Notes under the pieces: model-generated
Told to the model about the DNA's origin: nothing
Seen by the model: the letters and a program-made list of their open reading frames with translations, nothing else
The model's database searches: none
Part shown: one piece after another, positions 2,942 through 59,849 of the stretch
Numbering within the stretch: position 1 is the stretch's first letter
Layout of the letters: the number at the start of each line of letters is the position of its first letter
From: an uncultured Gammaproteobacteria bacterium
Lineage (GTDB): Bacteria > Pseudomonadota > Gammaproteobacteria > GCA-001735895
Assembly: GCA_947260025.1 (NCBI GenBank)
Contig: CAMYON010000013.1
Span: 20,806 to 84,805, forward strand
DNA: 64,000 nt
Reading direction: 5' to 3'
Program-made: the position numbers and the translations under genes

Positions 2942-4245
2942 TGTGGCACTTCCTGCAGATTAAATGGCAAAGCCTGGTTTTCAGGCTGCTGTTTTATTTC
3001 CTGATCTCCCTGCTGGCGCTCGCCGTAGTGCTCGGAATCAGTTTTACCAAGCGTCTCAAGCCGCATGTGCAAAATGAAATACTCCCCAATGTCGAACGCT
3101 ATATAGAGTACCTGATCGAAGATATCGGTTTGCCTCCCGATCTCGCGACAGCCGAGCGGCTGGCCGAGGAGTTACCGTTCGAACTCAGAATCGAGGGGCA
3201 GGGGATAGACTGGTCTTCGAGCCCGACGATCCGAGCCATAGGGAGCCATGATTTCAGGCCGGCGCCACCGCCTTACAGTGACGTTTACCTGAGCCATCAT
3301 CGACGCGCCGAGTACCTGTTGATAGAAAAGCAGGGCTATCGCTATCTCTTTGTCGTCGATAGCGGATTTCGTCGCGGCTCGGAGCGGCGCCACGGGGCCC
3401 TGTTCCTGTTCCTGGGTTTGCTCCTGCTGGTGCTTTATATCGCGATTCGACGCATGTTCAAGCCGGTGGAAGCCATGTCCCGGCAGGTGCGCAGGATCGG
3501 CGCCGGCGACCTCGACCAGCAAATCGAGGTCGCGGGTAAAAGCGAACTGGCGTTGCTCGCCGGCGGCATAAACCGGATGTCGGCACAGATCAAGTCGATG
3601 CTGGAGAGCAAATCTGCCCTGTTGCTGGCAATCAGCCACGAGCTGCGTTCGCCGATCACCCGGATGCGGGTAAACCTCGAGCTAATGGACACAAGCGAGA
3701 TCCAGCAAAAACTGATCGATGACCTCCGCGAAATGGAGTCGTTGGTAGCAACGATACTCGAATCCGAAAAGCTCAACAGCGGCCATGCGCCGTTGAACCT
3801 GAGCCGTTGCGACCTGGCGCTGCTGATCCAGGAGGTCTTGCAGGACCATCCCTGCGCGGAGCGTGTCGCCACCAGGCTGACGCCGGTCGAACTCGAAGTC
3901 GACCAAATGCGTATCAAGCTGCTGATCAAGAACCTGGTCGACAACGCATGTCACTATTCGAGCGAAGATGAAGGCCCGATCGAGGTGTCGCTGCATGCCG
4001 CCGACCGGATGGTAAAAGTCGAGGTGCTGGATCACGGAATCGGCATCGCTGCGGACGAGATTCCGCGGCTGACCGAACCTTTTTACCGTCCCGATTCTGC
4101 CCGCCAGCGGGATACCGGCGGTTACGGGTTGGGGCTCTACCTGTGCCAGCTCATCGCCGATGCGCACGGTGGTCAGATCTCGATAGAAAGTAAGCCTGGA
4201 AGTGGTACCAGGGTAATAGTCAGCATACCCCTTGATAATAGTTGA
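2941..4245 (+). CDS. Sensor histidine kinase (CpxA/CusS-like; periplasmic loop, HAMP, HisKA, HATPase)
   Basis: 434 aa; two TM segments; H-box LAISHELRSPITRM; G1/G2 boxes (DHGIGI, GGYGLGL). Confidence 0.85.
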   Translation: MWHFLQIKWQSLVFRLLFYFLISLLALAVVLGISFTKRLKPHVQNEILPNVERYIEYLIEDIGLPPDLATAERLAEELPFELRIEGQGIDWSSSPTIRAIGSHDFRPAPPPYSDVYLSHHRRAEYLLIEKQGYRYLFVVDSGFRRGSERRHGALFLFLGLLLLVLYIAIRRMFKPVEAMSRQVRRIGAGDLDQQIEVAGKSELALLAGGINRMSAQIKSMLESKSALLLAISHELRSPITRMRVNLELMDTSEIQQKLIDDLREMESLVATILESEKLNSGHAPLNLSRCDLALLIQEVLQDHPCAERVATRLTPVELEVDQMRIKLLIKNLVDNACHYSSEDEGPIEVSLHAADRMVKVEVLDHGIGIAADEIPRLTEPFYRPDSARQRDTGGYGLGLYLCQLIADAHGGQISIESKPGSGTRVIVSIPLDNS

Positions 4246-14406: not shown

Positions 14407-14877
14407 TTGGTAAATATGTCACATTTACGCGTTTTTATTGCAAATAGCCCTGTCCGCACGGCAATTCAGGTTTTAACCATATGCCTGCTGTTACAGCCCG
14501 TTAGCGCCTTCGCGACACAGTTGGTAGAGGTTAGTGCCGGTGGAACGACGTATCGGGTCGAAGTTGCGCGTACTTCGGCACAGCGCCGCCAGGGCCTGAT
14601 GCATCGGTCAAGCCTGGATCGAGAAGGGGGTATGTTGCTGGTTTACCGGAAGACCGGCGACCATCGAATCTGGATGAAGAATATGCGGATAGCGCTGCGC
14701 GTCTACTGGATCGATGCCGACGCCAGGGTGATTGAAATGCAGCGTCTGGAGCCCTGCCAGGAGTCACCCTGTCCGGTGTATTTTGCCTCGAAGCCGTCGC
14801 GCTACGTGCTCGAACTCAGCGATCACGAGCACCCGCTCGAAGTGGGCGACAGGATCGATGGGCTCAATGAGTTGTGA
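14407..14877 (+). CDS. DUF192-family secreted protein
   Basis: 156 aa; signal peptide; DUF192/COG1430-like pattern; divergent from rpfG across an AT-rich spacer. Confidence 0.6.
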   Translation: MVNMSHLRVFIANSPVRTAIQVLTICLLLQPVSAFATQLVEVSAGGTTYRVEVARTSAQRRQGLMHRSSLDREGGMLLVYRKTGDHRIWMKNMRIALRVYWIDADARVIEMQRLEPCQESPCPVYFASKPSRYVLELSDHEHPLEVGDRIDGLNEL

Positions 14878-15016
14878 CAGCGACGCGGCGTCGGTTCAAC
14901 CACAGCCAGGCGTGCGCGCATATCGCCGCTAAAATCAGTGGTACCACCGCATAGTTAACCAGTTGCCAGCCGAGCAAGTGCAGCAGCGCGCCGGCGCCGA
15001 ACGACGAGCAGGCTGC

Positions 15017-15150
15017 CGCCGTGAACACGACGAAGTCATTTAGCGCCTGCGACTTGGCGCTTTCCTCCGGGCGGTAGGTCTCGCGCCGTGAACACGACGA
15101 AGTCGTTTAGCGCCTGCGACTTGGCGCTTTCCTCCGGGCGGTAGGTCTCG
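15017..15150. repeat. Perfect 2 x 67-bp tandem direct duplication (one mismatch) inside the 3' end of the MFS transporter gene
   Basis: Copy 1 15017-15083, copy 2 15084-15150 (cgccgtgaacacgacgaagtcRtttagcgcctgcgacttggcgctttcctccgggcggtaggtctcg); 67 is not a multiple of 3. Confidence 0.9.
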
Positions 15151-16106
15151 GTTAGCAGGCTGGTGCCGCCGATAAACATGAAATTCCAGCCGACTCCGAG
15201 CAACAGCAGCGCCGCCCAGAAATGCCAGACCGAGCTGCCGCTGAAGTTGAGCAGGATGCACAGAATCATCAAACTGGCGCCGCTCATGATGATGCGCTGC
15301 GCGCCGAAACGATTAATCAAATGGCCGGTAAAAAACGACGGTACGAACATGCCGAGCACGTGCCATTGAATCACGAATGCAACCTCGCTGAACGCGTGAT
15401 CCTGGTGAGTCATTTCCAGCGGCGTCGCGGTCATCAGCAGCACCATAACGCTATAGCCGATGGCAGCGCTCGCCACCGCGACGATGAAGGCGGGCTGGCG
15501 CGCGATCTGTAGCATCGGTCGGGTATTTTGCCTGAAATCGCGCGCCACGGGTTTGGGCAGTTTCATGCACAGGAAGTTGATGCCGTTGAGGCCGTATAAA
15601 ACGATTACCGAAATAAAAGTACCGAGGTAAGTGATCGCGAAAACATCCTTGCTCAGATTAGCCAGGTTGGGGCCGATAATCGCCGCCAGTACCCCGCCGG
15701 CCAGCACGTAGCTGATCGCCGTATTCTTCTTGTCCGGCGGTGCCACCTCGGTCGCGGCAAATCGAAAGTAATTGCCAAAACCGGTGTACATGCCGGTGCC
15801 TATAGTGCCGATACAGAACAGCAGGAATGAATCCTGGTAAATCCCGATGACGCCGCAGACCGCCCCACTCAGGCCGATCAGCGTGGCCAGTAGAAAACCC
15901 GGCTTGCGTCCGATGCGGCCCATCAGCATCGATGCCGGGATCGTGGTCAGCATCACGGCAACGAACTGCAGTGCGAGAGGTAGCGTGGCCAGCGCCTTGT
16001 TGGTGGCGAGGTGGCTGCCGATAATCGCGGCAGAGGTCACCATCAGCGAGTTCACCGACATCATCAGTGCCTGCGCCAGTCCCAGCAGAAAAACGTTGCG
16101 ATTCAC
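15036..16106 (-). pseudogene. MFS transporter, C-terminally truncated by a frameshifting 67-bp tandem duplication (intact gene would end ~14866)
   Basis: 11 TM helices of the MFS type; GTG start overlaps the stop of the upstream AEC gene (GTGA); removing one repeat copy restores the last TM helix (GAGALLHLLGWQLVNYAVVPLILAAI) and a stop at 14866. Confidence 0.7.
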
Positions 16107-16993
16107 AGGATAAACCACAGTGTCGCCGGGATCACCACGACGCTGGCAAGGTTGCCCATTAACACGATCGATGCAACCCGATGCGGCTCCTGCTCGTAGC
16201 GTTCCGCCACCATGAAGTTCAGCACGGCCGGGGGCAACACGCTGAATAGTACTAACAGGGGTATCTGCGTCTCGGGCAATGGCACCAGGTAGACGAACGG
16301 CACCGCGATCGCCAGGCCGCTGAGCGGGCACAGCAGGGATCCGACCAGGCTGATTCTCCAGTTGGTCAGGTCGATCGCGAGCATGCGCACCCCGAGTGAA
16401 AACAGCATCAGCGGAATCGAGATCAGCCCCAGCATGTGAATCGGCTGGCGCAGGGTTTCGGGAATCACGATGCCCGAGAGCGAAACCGCGATTCCCAACA
16501 CGGTGGCCAGGATCATCGGATTGGTGGCCACCGCCCGCGGCGACCAGTGCTGGGTGATCAATTGCTGTCCTACCAGGAAATGCAGAAAGTTCGAAATTGC
16601 CAGCAGCAGGATCGCCGCTGGCAGCATCGATTCACCGAAGGCCAGCACCACCAGCGGCAAGCCCATGTTGCCGCAATTGTTGAACATCATTGGCGGCACC
16701 AGCGTCTTCCATTGGTAACCGAACGCGCGCGCCACCGGCCAGGCGATCACTCCCGATCCGAGGACTACGAAGACGCAGCCGAGCGACAGGTAAAGATAGT
16801 CGGTCAGCGCGTATTCGCTTCCCGACATGTAGTCGAAAATCAGCGCCGGGGTGAATATGTCCATGTTGATGCGGTTGCCGGAGGACATATCGGTGTCGTG
16901 CCGGTGGCGGGCATAGAAATAGCCGATGGCGACGATGCTGAAAACCGGGAAGATAATCGCAATGATGCGATAAACGAGATCCGCCTGTGACAT
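16103..16993 (-). CDS. AEC-family (auxin efflux carrier/MdcF-like) membrane transporter
   Basis: 296 aa polytopic membrane protein with AEC family similarity; 6 nt downstream of dctM. Confidence 0.7.
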   Translation of the reverse strand: MSQADLVYRIIAIIFPVFSIVAIGYFYARHRHDTDMSSGNRINMDIFTPALIFDYMSGSEYALTDYLYLSLGCVFVVLGSGVIAWPVARAFGYQWKTLVPPMMFNNCGNMGLPLVVLAFGESMLPAAILLLAISNFLHFLVGQQLITQHWSPRAVATNPMILATVLGIAVSLSGIVIPETLRQPIHMLGLISIPLMLFSLGVRMLAIDLTNWRISLVGSLLCPLSGLAIAVPFVYLVPLPETQIPLLVLFSVLPPAVLNFMVAERYEQEPHRVASIVLMGNLASVVVIPATLWFIL

Positions 16994-16999
16994 CAGGTG

Positions 17000-19663
17000 T
17001 CAGAAATGAAGGCTGATGTCTTTGTGTACGGCAAGACAGGTTGCGATCGATTCGGCCTGGTCGGAATCCAGGCGATCCTGCATACGCATGCCGATGGTGC
17101 CGGCGATCGCCTGGTCATATTCCTCGAGGTCGGTCGCGAGTTCCTCGCTGGCGCGCTGATGCCATTCGATTTCGCTTTGCAAGATTTCGGCCGCAAGCAT
17201 GGCCTCGGCCAGCGCCTTTTCCTTGTCGGGCGTCGCGCCGCGCAGGGCACGCTTGGCGCGCGACAGTTTCGACTTGATGCGATGTGTCTCGGTCAGCTCG
17301 TCGATCTTGAACTCTAACGTCTTGATAGCTTCCAGTCCTTCCTCCGGGGACTGAGAGCGGATCAGCTCCAGCAGCGGTTCGAACTCGCCCTGCAGGGCCT
17401 GCAGTTGATCGGTTTCGGAGATCATCCTGCGCATGGTCACAATCATTTCATAGCTGTCGTCGACATTCTGTCGATACTTGCGGCGAGCGGTGGTTTCCAC
17501 GCTGGCCAGGTTCTTGAATTCGCTGCGCCTTTGTTCCCAGTTGTCCGGAATGGTCGCCAGCAAGGCTTCGCTTTCGGCTTCGAGGTCCTTGATCCTGGCG
17601 AGTATGCGCTCGATCGCCGGTTCGTCTACCGGCTGTTCGAAAGCAAGCCGCTGCCGCTCCTGATCCAGTTCTTCGATAGTCTTTTTAAGCTTACGGGCGT
17701 CGCGCTGTATCTGGCGCACCTCGATATGCAGTGGGCGATAACCCGGCGTAAACTGCGCCATCGCAGCCTCGGCGGTACGAATCTCCTCGATCATGCCGAA
17801 CGCCCCGGCTGCCTGGCGGTAGCTCTCGTTGAGCCGTTCCTGGTATTCGTCCGGGAGGTAGGCGAGGTTGGCGGTCCTGACGCGTTCGATGCTGGCCTCG
17901 ATTTCGGCCCGGGTGGCGTCATAGACGACAAACTGGTAATCCTCGAGGCATTCCTGCAGCTTGGGGTTACTGGGTGGTGGCGCGGTTTCCGAAGTCAGGT
18001 GAGTCTTGTTCGGCAGGTAGTTGACCAGGCTCGGGAATGCACCCGCAATCGCGAGGCCGGCGAGCTGCAACACGATAAACGCGGCAGCGCCCTTGTAAAT
18101 CTGCAATGTGCGCACGTCCCTGGGCGCAACGCCGCGCAGGTAAAACAGGGAAAAGCCGAACGGCGGCGTCAGGAACGAGGTCTGGATGTTGAGGCCCACC
18201 ATGACGCCAAACCAGACCGCGGTCACGTTGGCACTGGGATCGGCCAGCAAAATCGGCGCCACGATCGGCACCACGACAACCGCGATTTCGAGAAAGTCGA
18301 GGAAGAATCCGAGGAAGAAGATAACCGCCATGACGACGATGAACTGTGTCCAGAACCCGCCCGGCAGCGACGTCAGGTATTCCTTGACCAGTTCCTCGCC
18401 ACCAAACGCGCGGAACGCCGAAGTCAGCATCGCCGCGCCGAGCAGTATGATGAATACCATCGACGTGGTCTTGGCGGTATCCATCATGACCCCGCGCAGC
18501 GTGTCTTCGATTTTGAAGGCGCGCCAGGTTGCCCAACCGATCGCGCCGATCAGCACCAGTGCCGCAATCGCGGCCAGCGTCACCCCGAACGCATCGTAGC
18601 CGCTTTGAATGTTCTTGATATTGAGACTGAACAGGTTCGTCAGGATGATTATTACGAAGACCGAACCGATGGCCAGTGCCGCCGGGTAGTAAGCCCTTTT
18701 ATGTCCTTCCATCAGACGGTAACTGCCCATCATCATCGCGCCGATGGCTCCGATGGCGCCAGCCTGGTTTACCGTGGCGACGCCGAGAATAATCGAGCCC
18801 AGCACGATAAAGATCAGCGTCAGCGGCGGTACCAGCGCCAACAACACCTTGAGAACGAAATGATGATCGTATTTGCCGTCGAAGGGCACCGGCGGTGCTT
18901 TCTTGGGATTGATCAGGGCCGAGCCCAGGATATAAAGCATGTAGAGGCCGACCAGGATCATGCCCGGCACGAACGCGCCCATGAACATGTCGCCCGCGCT
19001 CGCGGTCACCACGTCGAAATCTCCCGGCATAGAAAATTCACCGGTGGCCTCCTTGTATTCCGCCTTGCGCGTGGTCGCGGCCTGGTCCGCCGCGCTCGAT
19101 AACTGGTCGGCCAGGATAATCAGCACGATCGACGGCGGGATAATCTGTCCCAGCGTTCCCGAGGCGCAGATCGTGCCGCAGGCCAGCGATTTGGAATAGT
19201 TGTTGCGCAGCATGGCCGGCAGCGAGATCAGCCCCATGGCAATGACCGTGGCGCCGACGATCCCGGTGGTGGCGGCGAGCAGCGCGCCAACGAATACGAC
19301 CGATATGCCCAGTCCACCGGGGATTGGCCCGAACAGTTGCGCCATCGCGACCAGCAGGTCCTCGGCGATACGTGAACGTTGCAGCATGATGCCCATGAAA
19401 ATAAACAGCGGGATCGCGATCAGCGTATCGCGCTCGACCACCCAGTAAAGACTTCGGTAGTTGGTAACGCCGGCGCTAAGCCACTGGTTTGGTCCGCCAA
19501 GCACGAAGTAGGCGTCGACATTGCCCTCGAACACCCAGCCGCAGAAGGCGGCAATGGCGATGGTAACGACCGCCGCGCCGGGAAGCGCGAACGCTACCGG
19601 GAAGCCCGAGGTCAGGGCGAACACCATGATTGCGACCAGCAGTACCAGGAAGTACAGTTCCAT
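17000..19663 (-). CDS. dctM: TRAP transporter large permease (DctM family) fused to a ~360-aa C-terminal cytoplasmic coiled-coil domain
   Basis: 887 aa; residues 1-~525 are a 12-TM DctM domain; residues ~530-887 are charged, heptad-rich and unrelated to transporters. Confidence 0.8.
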   Translation of the reverse strand: MELYFLVLLVAIMVFALTSGFPVAFALPGAAVVTIAIAAFCGWVFEGNVDAYFVLGGPNQWLSAGVTNYRSLYWVVERDTLIAIPLFIFMGIMLQRSRIAEDLLVAMAQLFGPIPGGLGISVVFVGALLAATTGIVGATVIAMGLISLPAMLRNNYSKSLACGTICASGTLGQIIPPSIVLIILADQLSSAADQAATTRKAEYKEATGEFSMPGDFDVVTASAGDMFMGAFVPGMILVGLYMLYILGSALINPKKAPPVPFDGKYDHHFVLKVLLALVPPLTLIFIVLGSIILGVATVNQAGAIGAIGAMMMGSYRLMEGHKRAYYPAALAIGSVFVIIILTNLFSLNIKNIQSGYDAFGVTLAAIAALVLIGAIGWATWRAFKIEDTLRGVMMDTAKTTSMVFIILLGAAMLTSAFRAFGGEELVKEYLTSLPGGFWTQFIVVMAVIFFLGFFLDFLEIAVVVVPIVAPILLADPSANVTAVWFGVMVGLNIQTSFLTPPFGFSLFYLRGVAPRDVRTLQIYKGAAAFIVLQLAGLAIAGAFPSLVNYLPNKTHLTSETAPPPSNPKLQECLEDYQFVVYDATRAEIEASIERVRTANLAYLPDEYQERLNESYRQAAGAFGMIEEIRTAEAAMAQFTPGYRPLHIEVRQIQRDARKLKKTIEELDQERQRLAFEQPVDEPAIERILARIKDLEAESEALLATIPDNWEQRRSEFKNLASVETTARRKYRQNVDDSYEMIVTMRRMISETDQLQALQGEFEPLLELIRSQSPEEGLEAIKTLEFKIDELTETHRIKSKLSRAKRALRGATPDKEKALAEAMLAAEILQSEIEWHQRASEELATDLEEYDQAIAGTIGMRMQDRLDSDQAESIATCLAVHKDISLHF

Positions 19664-19664
19664 G

Positions 19665-20711
19665 TCAGTGACCGCCCTCCGAAACCGCGTTTTTATCTTC
19701 CGATATCAACTGGAAGTAGGTCTGGTGCTCCTCGCCCTTGCCGTGGCTGAGCAACTGGTTTGCGTTGTACAACAGGTAGCTGACGAACTGGATCAGCATG
19801 GTAACCGCGAAAATGATCAGGAAAGCGGCCATGAGGTACTTGACGTACATGCCGTAACCGCTTTGCGAGACTTCGAAACTGAGCAGCGGGCTATTGATAC
19901 TGTTGCCGCGGCCGCCCATGCCCTGCATCAGGATAACCCAGCAGATCGGCATGCCGAGAAACAGGCAGCCGATGGTATCGAACAGCGCTTTCTTGCGGCG
20001 CCTGAAACCGGTGTACAGCACATCGACTCGTACGTGGCCTTCCTCAACCAGCGTATGCGCACTGGCGAACAGGAACAGCGCCGCATACCAGAAACGTACC
20101 ACGTCGCCCATGTAAGCCTGCTCGTAGGAAAAAACGAAGCGCGTAATGACGATCAGGAATTCGGCCAGCACGCACATCAAAGCGAGCCAGCTGAAACTGA
20201 TATTGCGCAGCCTGGCCGCGATAAACAGCGAGGCGACGATCAAAGGGTAATGCACGTAGGTGCCACGAAATATGGGACGGCCCAGCTGCTGGTTTAACCA
20301 TTCGCCAGCAATTGGTTCGAGGATGCCTTCCACGCGCAGGAAAGAAATTACCATGTCGACCAGGCCCACCAGCGTTACCGACCAGAACGCGAAACGCACG
20401 AGGTAGGCGGAAAGCCTGGCGAAACGAATGCTGTCCTGCTCGAGCGTGCGCGCATGGGTCTTCAGTACGTATGCGACGCTGCCGGCAAGCAGCAGCAGGT
20501 AGATAATCAGCTGGGTCCAGCCCTGGCTGATTTTTGACTCGTCGAGGGCTTCGACTTCGAGGCCGAACCAGCCGTAATGCAACGCCAGCGCGTAAGGCCC
20601 CGGCATCTCCTGCCAGTAGACCAGGTAATTGTTAATCAGGTACAGAAACACGCCACTGACCATGACGTAGGCGAAACTACGCGTAATCAGGGGCAGGTTA
20701 CGTTGAATCAT
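19665..20711 (-). CDS. dctQ: TRAP transporter small permease (DctQ family), N-terminally extended
   Basis: 348 aa; DctQ signature (VDVLYTGFRRRKKALFDTIGCLFLGMPICW) in the C-terminal half; ~150 extra N-terminal residues with additional TM segments; overlaps the dctM start. Confidence 0.7.
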   Translation of the reverse strand: MIQRNLPLITRSFAYVMVSGVFLYLINNYLVYWQEMPGPYALALHYGWFGLEVEALDESKISQGWTQLIIYLLLLAGSVAYVLKTHARTLEQDSIRFARLSAYLVRFAFWSVTLVGLVDMVISFLRVEGILEPIAGEWLNQQLGRPIFRGTYVHYPLIVASLFIAARLRNISFSWLALMCVLAEFLIVITRFVFSYEQAYMGDVVRFWYAALFLFASAHTLVEEGHVRVDVLYTGFRRRKKALFDTIGCLFLGMPICWVILMQGMGGRGNSINSPLLSFEVSQSGYGMYVKYLMAAFLIIFAVTMLIQFVSYLLYNANQLLSHGKGEEHQTYFQLISEDKNAVSEGGH

Positions 20712-20783: not shown

Positions 20784-21875
20784 CTACAGACCAAGCACGC
20801 GGTTACGCTGCGCCACGTAGGCCTGATCCGAGATCTTGGCCCAGGCACCGACTTCGCCACGCGACTTGAGAAAGCTCTGGTGAATTTTCTTCGCCATCGG
20901 GCTGTGCTGCTGCACTTCCTCGAACACTTCCGCCGCGGCATCGCCGAAGCTGTCGTAGATGTCGTCGCTGAAGTTTCTCAGCTTGACGCCCTGGTCCGAA
21001 ATCAGGCTGGCGAGCGAGGCGCCGTTCTTGGCGTTGTACTCGGACATCATCACTGAATTCTCCGTTTCGGCGGCAGCAGTGATAATGATCTGGTCCGCCT
21101 TGCTCAGACCGTCCCAGAATTTTTTGTTGATACCGAGCGACAGCATCGAGCCTGGCTCGTGCATGCCCGGGTAGTAGTAGAACTTGGCGGCTTCGTAGAA
21201 CTTCATGAAGCTGTCGTTCCAGGGTCCTACCCATTCGGTAGCATCGATCGCGCCGGATACCAGGTTTTCATAAATCTGACCGCCAGGCAGCGATACCGGC
21301 GATGCGCCAAGCTTGGCGAGCACGTCGCCGCCAAGACCCGGGATACGCATTTTCAGGCCCTTGAAATCGGAGGCGGAGCGCATTTCCTTGCGGAACCAGC
21401 CACCCATTTGTACCCCGGTATTACCGCAGGGCAGGCACTTGAGGCCGTAACCGGCGGCGAGTTCGTCCCACAATTCCTGGCCACCGCCGAACTGGGTCCA
21501 GGCGTTGACCTCGGTAAAAGTCATGCCGAAGGGGACGCCGGTAAAATAAGCCCAGCCAGGGTGCTTACCTTTCCAGTAGTAGTCGGCGGCATGGTACATC
21601 TGCGCGTTGCCCGAGGCGACTTCGTCGAACGAATCGAAAGCCTTGACGCGCTCGCCGGCGGCGAAATAGTTGACCTTGATACGACCATCGGTCATCGCGG
21701 TGAGGCGCTCGGCGAAGCGCTGCGCGCCGGTACCGAGACCGGGAAAGTCACGCGGCCAGGTAGATACCATGGTTATTTCGATTCGGCTCTGAGCTATTGC
21801 TGGTGCTGAGACCGCGCCTGCCCCGGTTGCTAATGCGGCGGCGACGCCACCTTTGAGTACATCACGACGTTTCAT
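20784..21875 (-). CDS. dctP: TRAP transporter periplasmic solute-binding protein (DctP family, Tat signal)
   Basis: 363 aa; twin-arginine signal (MKRRDVLKGGVAAALATGAGAVSAPA); DctP/FcbT1-like family. Confidence 0.8.
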   Translation of the reverse strand: MKRRDVLKGGVAAALATGAGAVSAPAIAQSRIEITMVSTWPRDFPGLGTGAQRFAERLTAMTDGRIKVNYFAAGERVKAFDSFDEVASGNAQMYHAADYYWKGKHPGWAYFTGVPFGMTFTEVNAWTQFGGGQELWDELAAGYGLKCLPCGNTGVQMGGWFRKEMRSASDFKGLKMRIPGLGGDVLAKLGASPVSLPGGQIYENLVSGAIDATEWVGPWNDSFMKFYEAAKFYYYPGMHEPGSMLSLGINKKFWDGLSKADQIIITAAAETENSVMMSEYNAKNGASLASLISDQGVKLRNFSDDIYDSFGDAAAEVFEEVQQHSPMAKKIHQSFLKSRGEVGAWAKISDQAYVAQRNRVLGL

Positions 21876-59721: not shown

Positions 59722-59809
59722 GGAGAGCTGGCAGAGTGGTCGAATGCGGCGGTCTTGAAAACCGTTGACCCGAAAGGGTCCGGGGGTTCGAATCCCTCGC
59801 TCTCCGCCA
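59722..59809 (+). tRNA. tRNA-Ser (anticodon UGA), class II with long variable arm, encoded CCA
   Basis: 88 nt; colinear with E. coli tRNA-Ser(UGA) (CGGTCTTGAAAACCG anticodon arm; GGTTCGAATCC T-loop). Confidence 0.9.
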
Positions 59810-59849
59810 TCCATGGGGGGTTCGAATCCCTCGCTCTCCGCCATCCATG
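59782..59849 (+). repeat. Perfect 2 x 34-bp tandem duplication of the tRNA-Ser 3' end (T-arm, acceptor 3' strand, CCA and 6 nt): att-like scar
   Basis: GGGGGTTCGAATCCCTCGCTCTCCGCCATCCATG at 59782-59815 and again at 59816-59849. Confidence 0.9.

Follow-up and report, generated by a model that had tools for sequence, protein, structure and literature searches.

A 67-nt tandem repeat that truncates an MFS transporter gene in the record of an uncultured gammaproteobacterium, and its possible origins

The transporter cluster and its doubled segment

The window analysed here is a 64,000-nt stretch of a contig from an uncultured Gammaproteobacteria bacterium (GenBank CAMYON010000013.1, positions 20,806 to 84,805), the minus strand of which carries a closely spaced series of transporter genes. 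Upstream of the MFS gene and on the same strand lie dctP (20784-21875), a dctQ-like gene (19665-20711), dctM (17000-19663), which encodes a TRAP large subunit of 887 aa, and a gene for a 296-aa AEC/Mem_trans permease (16103-16993), which sits between dctM and the MFS gene. The last of the series is an MFS_1 transporter ORF that, as written, spans 15036-16106 on the minus strand and specifies 356 aa from a GTG start (product P0193). In the order dctP-dctQ-dctM-AEC-MFS the first three intergenic gaps measure 72, 1 and 6 nt and the last two genes overlap by 4 nt; the MFS start codon at 16106 overlaps the stop of the upstream permease gene (GTGA); the collection's own gene call for P0193 (356 aa) uses the same start. 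A DUF192 gene on the plus strand (14407-14877) converges on the MFS gene, and the order DctM-Mem_trans-MFS-DUF192, with the last gene convergent, was seen again in relatives. The earlier proposal that the MFS gene closes a transporter operon is therefore a fair inference from tight spacing and synteny.

The TRAP components of the cluster have features of their own. The dctQ-like product is long (348 aa) and matches DctQ only at residues 185-310, and in DctM a hydrophilic, charge-rich stretch of about 340 residues, probably a coiled coil, extends the C terminus beyond the membrane domain; the length of 887 aa is kept in relatives. An 887-aa DctM paired with a long DctQ-like protein makes for an unusual TRAP architecture. 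The MFS protein itself matched the MFS_1 profile (PF07690) with 97.2 bits against a gathering cut-off of 33.4. Comparison with NCBIfam gave only weak, generic MFS matches and no named subfamily, and the hits of a profile search of PDB sequences, GLUT1 and designed repeat proteins, were all weak.

Direct comparison of 15017-15083 with 15084-15150 revealed head-to-tail copies of a 67-nt unit that are identical at 66 of 67 positions. Tandem Repeats Finder described 15017-15150 as 2.0 copies of period 67 with 98% matches, no indels and a score of 261, and an independent repeat search returned the same two copies. The array comprises exactly 2.0 units, as position 15016 (C) differs from the last base of the unit (G) and position 15151 (G) differs from the first (C). 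At 15083/15084 the copies abut in a blunt junction with no base between them and 0 nt of microhomology; positions 15073-15093 read GGTAGGTCTCG followed directly by CGCCGTGAAC. A match of 66 in 67 between adjacent segments cannot arise by chance, and the doubling of this stretch in the deposited sequence is confirmed as a real observation. The preliminary description had called the duplication perfect: the tandem copies stand, but the perfection does not, given the one mismatch that its own text acknowledged.

This sole mismatch is an A at 15038 against a G at 15105. The copy that comes first in gene sense (15084-15150, minus strand) is read in the original frame as residues 320-341 (ETYRPEESAKSQALNDFVVFTA), and the second (15017-15083, minus strand) is read one base out of frame, as RDLPPGGKRQVAGAK and then a stop. 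In the original frame the mismatch falls at a third codon position and is synonymous, AAT versus AAC. The first copy has AAC (Asn), as do the related loci L001, L025 and L081, and the second has AAT (Asn), as do L002, L003 and L006.

Slippage, the origin first suggested for the repeat, is unsupported, as the junction has 0 nt of microhomology; a search for flanking repeats that might have allowed slippage turned up a nearby 9-nt repeat, CAGCCTGCT, the copies of which are spaced by 80 nt and not 67. No convincing hairpin or inverted repeat was found at the breakpoints of the 67-nt copies, and no promoter or terminator newly created by the repeat was detected.

Consequences for the MFS protein

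The additional 67 nt amount to 22 codons plus one nucleotide, and so the frame shifts in the middle of TM11. The resulting 356-aa product ends in ...FTARDLPPGGKRQVAGAK: after family residues 1-341 come 15 out-of-frame residues (RDLPPGGKRQVAGAK), and then the TGA at 15036-15038. It is the T of the AAT codon in the second copy that makes this stop in the shifted frame, which without that T would reach 383 aa. Removal of either copy yielded an identical 391-aa protein ending in ...NRRRVAVTTH, with its stop at 14864-14866. This agrees with the predicted stop near 14866, convergent with the DUF192 gene; the restored stop overlaps that gene (14407-14877) by 14 nt, as in L003. The orphaned 3' remainder of the MFS gene (14864-15016, minus strand) is intact and conserved, and specifies in the original frame residues 342-391, that is, half of TM11 and all of TM12, and the original stop. 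The claim of a frameshift and truncation in an MFS gene thus held, with 356 aa as written against 391 aa restored and a clear match to PF07690.

The 120 best homologs are about 391 aa long (range about 369-405 aa) and align over 99-100% of the one-copy reconstruction. Conservation of the last 50 residues is evident across an alignment of 23 sequences, in which S346, A349, G350, A351, W358, V361, N362, P367 and L379 are nearly invariant. The product as written lacks the last 50 aligned columns and is not collinear with its orthologs. The alignment with MFS homologs that had been proposed as a check thus recovers a full-length protein and regains the conserved S346, A349-G350-A351, W358, V361-N362 and P367. 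None of the homologs aligned ended naturally at the truncated position, as might have been the case had the duplication not been inactivating.

MFS proteins have twelve TM helices arranged as two six-helix halves. An AlphaFold model of the 391-aa reconstruction (mean pLDDT 80, pTM 0.79) contains 12 TM helices, the last three at residues 293-319, 324-356 and 358-389 (TM10-12), in agreement with hydropathy. On this model the product as encoded has 10.5 helices and not twelve, and, judged from the 6+6 architecture of the family, such a protein would be very unlikely to function. The loss had been described as that of the last TM helix. The break after residue 341 lies inside TM11, however, and about 1.5 helices are missing (half of TM11 and TM12); the string offered earlier as the twelfth helix corresponds to the second half of TM11 together with TM12.

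We considered whether translation might bypass the lesion. Rescue by programmed frameshifting was rejected: the stretch from junction to stop contains no slippery heptamer, and the rescued product would carry a 22-residue repeat in TM11. The mismatch-made TGA (15036-15038) sits 7 nt upstream of an original-frame GTG (15026-15028) that opens a 54-codon ORF (14864-15028) encoding the remainder of TM11 and TM12, with no Shine-Dalgarno sequence before it. Speculatively, it is conceivable that termination and reinitiation at this GTG could yield the remaining 54 residues as a separate fragment.

Beyond the repeat, the gene shows no decay. Compared with L001, the reconstruction has a dN/dS of 0.065 over the whole gene and of 0.08 over codons 342-391 (14 synonymous and 4 non-synonymous differences), the part that lies downstream of the break. 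The MFS gene has this single lesion, with no further lesions and no relaxed constraint, and thus does not look like a decaying pseudogene. The two copies differ by 1/67, or 1.5%, compared with a dS of 0.33 to L001; taken at face value, and with a very wide error, this divergence would put the age of the duplication at a few per cent of that of the split from L001.

Relatives of the locus and a second duplication

To place the repeat in context, 80 loci from species-representative genomes and 80 from metagenome contigs were compared. Marine and estuarine samples supplied the closest relatives, all uncultured Gammaproteobacteria, with amino acid identities of 96% (L001), 93% (L025 and L082) and 85% (the Olavius algarvensis Gamma 3 symbiont). 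Aligned by blastn to close relatives, the window falls into two segments whose subject ranges share about 60-67 nt, indicating that these genomes have one copy, and in each of the 25 loci displayed the 67-nt unit region has a single alignment. Among the 68 loci of at least 60% identity, drawn from both sets, none has a frameshifting insertion at the duplication site. The window's proteins are recorded from a single NCBI contig (164,790 bp), which is the sole source of the truncated product P0193. The public collections searched held no second allele or independent assembly of the same strain, and a 45-nt pattern from inside the 67-nt unit had no match in metagenome contigs.

Several relatives carry other structural variants of the same gene. 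In L025 (JAACFA010000052.1, about 580-590) a 41-nt deletion with 2 nt of microhomology causes a frameshift in the region coding for TM7. L081 (JGI 3300045295, Ga0493821_06417, 3001-4108) has a blunt 59-nt deletion that removes most of TM11 and leaves a product of 341 aa (P0204); the deletion starts 7 nt from the gene-distal boundary of the duplication, upstream of the position where the unit ends. In L010 (CALZHS010000279.1, about 3200-3500) the MFS ORF runs from about residue 370 into unrelated permease-like sequence. Two further products are altered in frame: in P0201 the AEC and MFS genes are fused, with the end of one and the start of the other missing, and P0206 lacks 6 aa (AAIGYS) in TM7. 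We rejected recurrent loss of function in the clade as a conclusion from these cases, since disruptions affect only 3 of the 68 loci (identity of at least 60%), one of these having been picked for its shortness, and such numbers are too few for a claim of selection.

A second tandem duplication lies in the same window, 45 kb from the first. At 59782-59849 on the plus strand, a perfect 34-nt unit occurs twice with a blunt junction and 0 nt of microhomology; it spans the last 28 nt of a tRNA-Ser(TGA) gene (59722-59809) and 6 nt downstream. The first copy of the tRNA is intact, and the duplication stands just before a terminator-like hairpin. It is absent from L162, which has one copy and in which the neighbouring nei-like gene is 93% identical, so that the same type of lesion recurs in this assembly and is lacking in relatives. 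No other exact tandem duplication and no run of N was found in the 64-kb window. An origin of the tRNA-Ser duplication as the att remnant of an island was rejected, with no integrase present and nei-like, PLD-family and HTH genes downstream.

Two such events in one window are more than the background would predict. When 639,311 nt of relatives' loci were screened with Tandem Repeats Finder for comparable duplications (period of at least 30 and at least 98% identity), one was found (L061, period 62, 98%). By our arithmetic this corresponds to about 0.1 duplication per 64 kb and a Poisson probability of about 0.005 for two or more in the window, the density of which is about 20 times background.

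The tRNA-Ser flank itself varies among relatives. L163 (924-1199; ENA ERZ925375 k127_2119778) has an older tRNA-Ser duplication with a spacing of 167 nt, comprising 25 nt from the 3' end of the tRNA and a block of 84 nt downstream, with 93% identity between copies. Between the L163 copies lies a GC-rich insert of about 58 nt, the start of which is palindromic (CCAATTCGC...GCGAATTGG). L162 (about 160-205) carries a similar insert of about 45 nt, and the window has none. This GC-rich insert may be a small mobile or REP-like element.

Origin of the doubled sequence

We prefer to read the doubled 67 nt as an unmerged-overlap or strain-haplotype join made in assembly and not as a genuine mutation, a proposal that we hold with roughly even confidence. 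Two overlapping ends, of contigs or of strain haplotypes in a mixed population, would have been placed end to end without being merged, and the 67-nt overlap would thereby have been written twice. Bad joins of this kind would arise where population heterogeneity breaks assembly graphs, and the real gene would then encode an intact 391-aa, 12-helix MFS transporter, as in every relative. Several points favour this proposal: the duplication is private to one assembly; the same 64 kb contains another private duplication, likewise blunt; microhomology is 0 nt at either junction, as arbitrary overlap ends would give; the mismatch is synonymous in the original frame with both codons present in relatives, the polymorphism signature of a working gene; there is no decay beyond the break; and a two-copy allele is expected to be unstable.

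The last point draws on work in model organisms. In E. coli, adjacent tandem repeats of about 100 bp are lost at high rates by deletions that do not require RecA (PMC8378479), and tandem duplications in yeast revert rapidly (PMC8639346). Deletion at such speed suggests that a true two-copy allele would usually be lost before it gained a point difference. Similarly, the writing of divergent haplotypes twice is a documented class of assembly error (PMC9516828), and a preprint reports that scaffolders can ignore contig overlaps (bioRxiv 10.1101/2020.04.29.065847). The present case resembles the false duplications and unmerged overlaps treated in these two sources in having near-identical adjacent copies, a polymorphism-like SNP, occurrence in one assembly, a conserved gene broken and a second case nearby. 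It differs from the cases described, which are on the scale of kilobases, come from diploid eukaryotes and are often gapped, whereas the units here are 67 and 34 nt, abutted without N, on a bacterial contig that is probably metagenome-derived.

Some features of the record count against a join in assembly. The window has no runs of N, which sets the case apart from a classical gapped scaffold join, and it appears to be of high quality at base level, its long genes being intact throughout. Unsupported junction k-mers are not normally a product of De Bruijn-graph assemblers, and an artefact would therefore need a merging, gap-closing or polishing step. The indels of similar size in the MFS gene of sister lineages (L025 and L081) also argue against an artefact, as does the plasticity at the tRNA-Ser of L163, which means that both sites could be genuine rearrangement hot spots. 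The indels in relatives and the plastic tRNA-Ser flank fit real hot spots and assembly graphs broken by heterogeneity equally well. Separately, the unit lengths of 34 and 67 nt equal K+1 and 2K+1 for K=33, the lengths of a minimal edge and of a SNP-bubble edge, which may be coincidence; 33 is a default SPAdes k-mer size. A simple K=33 SNP bubble read twice was rejected, as the SNP is at unit position 22 and not 34.

A genuine lineage-specific tandem duplication, fixed or polymorphic, which would make the MFS gene a young pseudogene at the end of its operon with no polar effect, is a serious contender to which we assign somewhat less than even probability. On this reading the product without half of TM11 and TM12 is almost certainly non-functional. 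The deposited sequence shows the duplication, in a clean surrounding assembly without Ns; sister lineages carry independent disruptions of the same gene (L025, L081 and L010), which means that the transporter does have loss-of-function alleles, and the TM11 region may be fragile; and blunt junctions do occur naturally, as in S. pombe isolates about half of the naturally occurring insertions of 10 bp or more are without microhomology (PMC8639346). The case also resembles an ordinary young bacterial pseudogene in having one lesion, an otherwise intact sequence and intact orthologs under purifying selection, but is unlike one in that the two copies making up the putative lesion already differ by one base. 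That difference is awkward when the remainder is undecayed, and a change that is synonymous in the old frame would be irrelevant in a dead copy. Adjacent 67-nt repeats should moreover be short-lived (PMC8378479), purifying selection on the gene is strong across the clade (dN/dS 0.065), a second private blunt case lies within 64 kb at about 20 times the background density, and a single assembly carries the duplication. The preliminary view of a very recent event fares unevenly: the intact downstream part fits it, and the one mismatch between the copies fits poorly. Microhomology-mediated or slippage duplications (PMC8639346; PMC8378479) are likewise only a partial model. Like them, the repeat is a head-to-tail coding duplication of tens of bases, with nothing between the copies, that shifts the frame and would in principle be revertible, but the terminal short direct repeat that defines them is here 0 nt.

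Other readings of a real duplication fit less well than these. A reversible phase-variable switch, in which gain and loss of a 67-nt copy would toggle the transporter, seems to us very improbable. It would draw on the high rates at which tandem duplications revert (PMC8639346, PMC8378479) and on the breakpoint of L081 within the same few nucleotides, and, as in phase-variable contingency loci, a change in copy number would shift the frame of a transport gene. Unlike such loci, however, this one has a unit present only twice, no simple-sequence or multi-copy tract, no observed heterogeneity and no conservation in relatives. Nothing at the junction in the way of microhomology would favour re-formation of the duplication, and the mismatch gives no sign of repeated cycling. 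With every relative examined having one copy and no second allele of the strain found in the public collections searched, the suggestion of a heterogeneous or phase-variable site finds no backing. The broader scenario, in which the duplication is real, the TM11 region is a rearrangement hot spot and loss of the transporter is recurrent, reversible and favoured (for example against toxin entry or as loss of a phage receptor), strikes us as similarly far-fetched. The chance that the shorter protein is a natural functional variant is close to nil. We found no support for it; the 120 best homologs, at about 369-405 aa, all cover the restored C terminus, positions in TM11 and TM12 are conserved, and the 15 residues of the tail come from the duplicated unit read out of frame. 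Homolog lengths, C-terminal conservation and the 68-locus survey together rule this variant out.

An assembly join, the reading we prefer, and a young knock-out are both of a well-known kind, and on either the finding is ordinary and contains nothing new. Its practical value is as a quality flag, as two blunt, private tandem duplications lie within 64 kb of one record, and pseudogenes or 'duplications' on this contig warrant caution before they are interpreted; annotation of the MFS gene is probably better taken from the one-copy reconstruction. The biological stakes are small. Were the duplication real, the MFS transporter that ends the TRAP-AEC-MFS cluster would have been lost in one strain of an uncultured marine-sediment or symbiont-related gammaproteobacterium.
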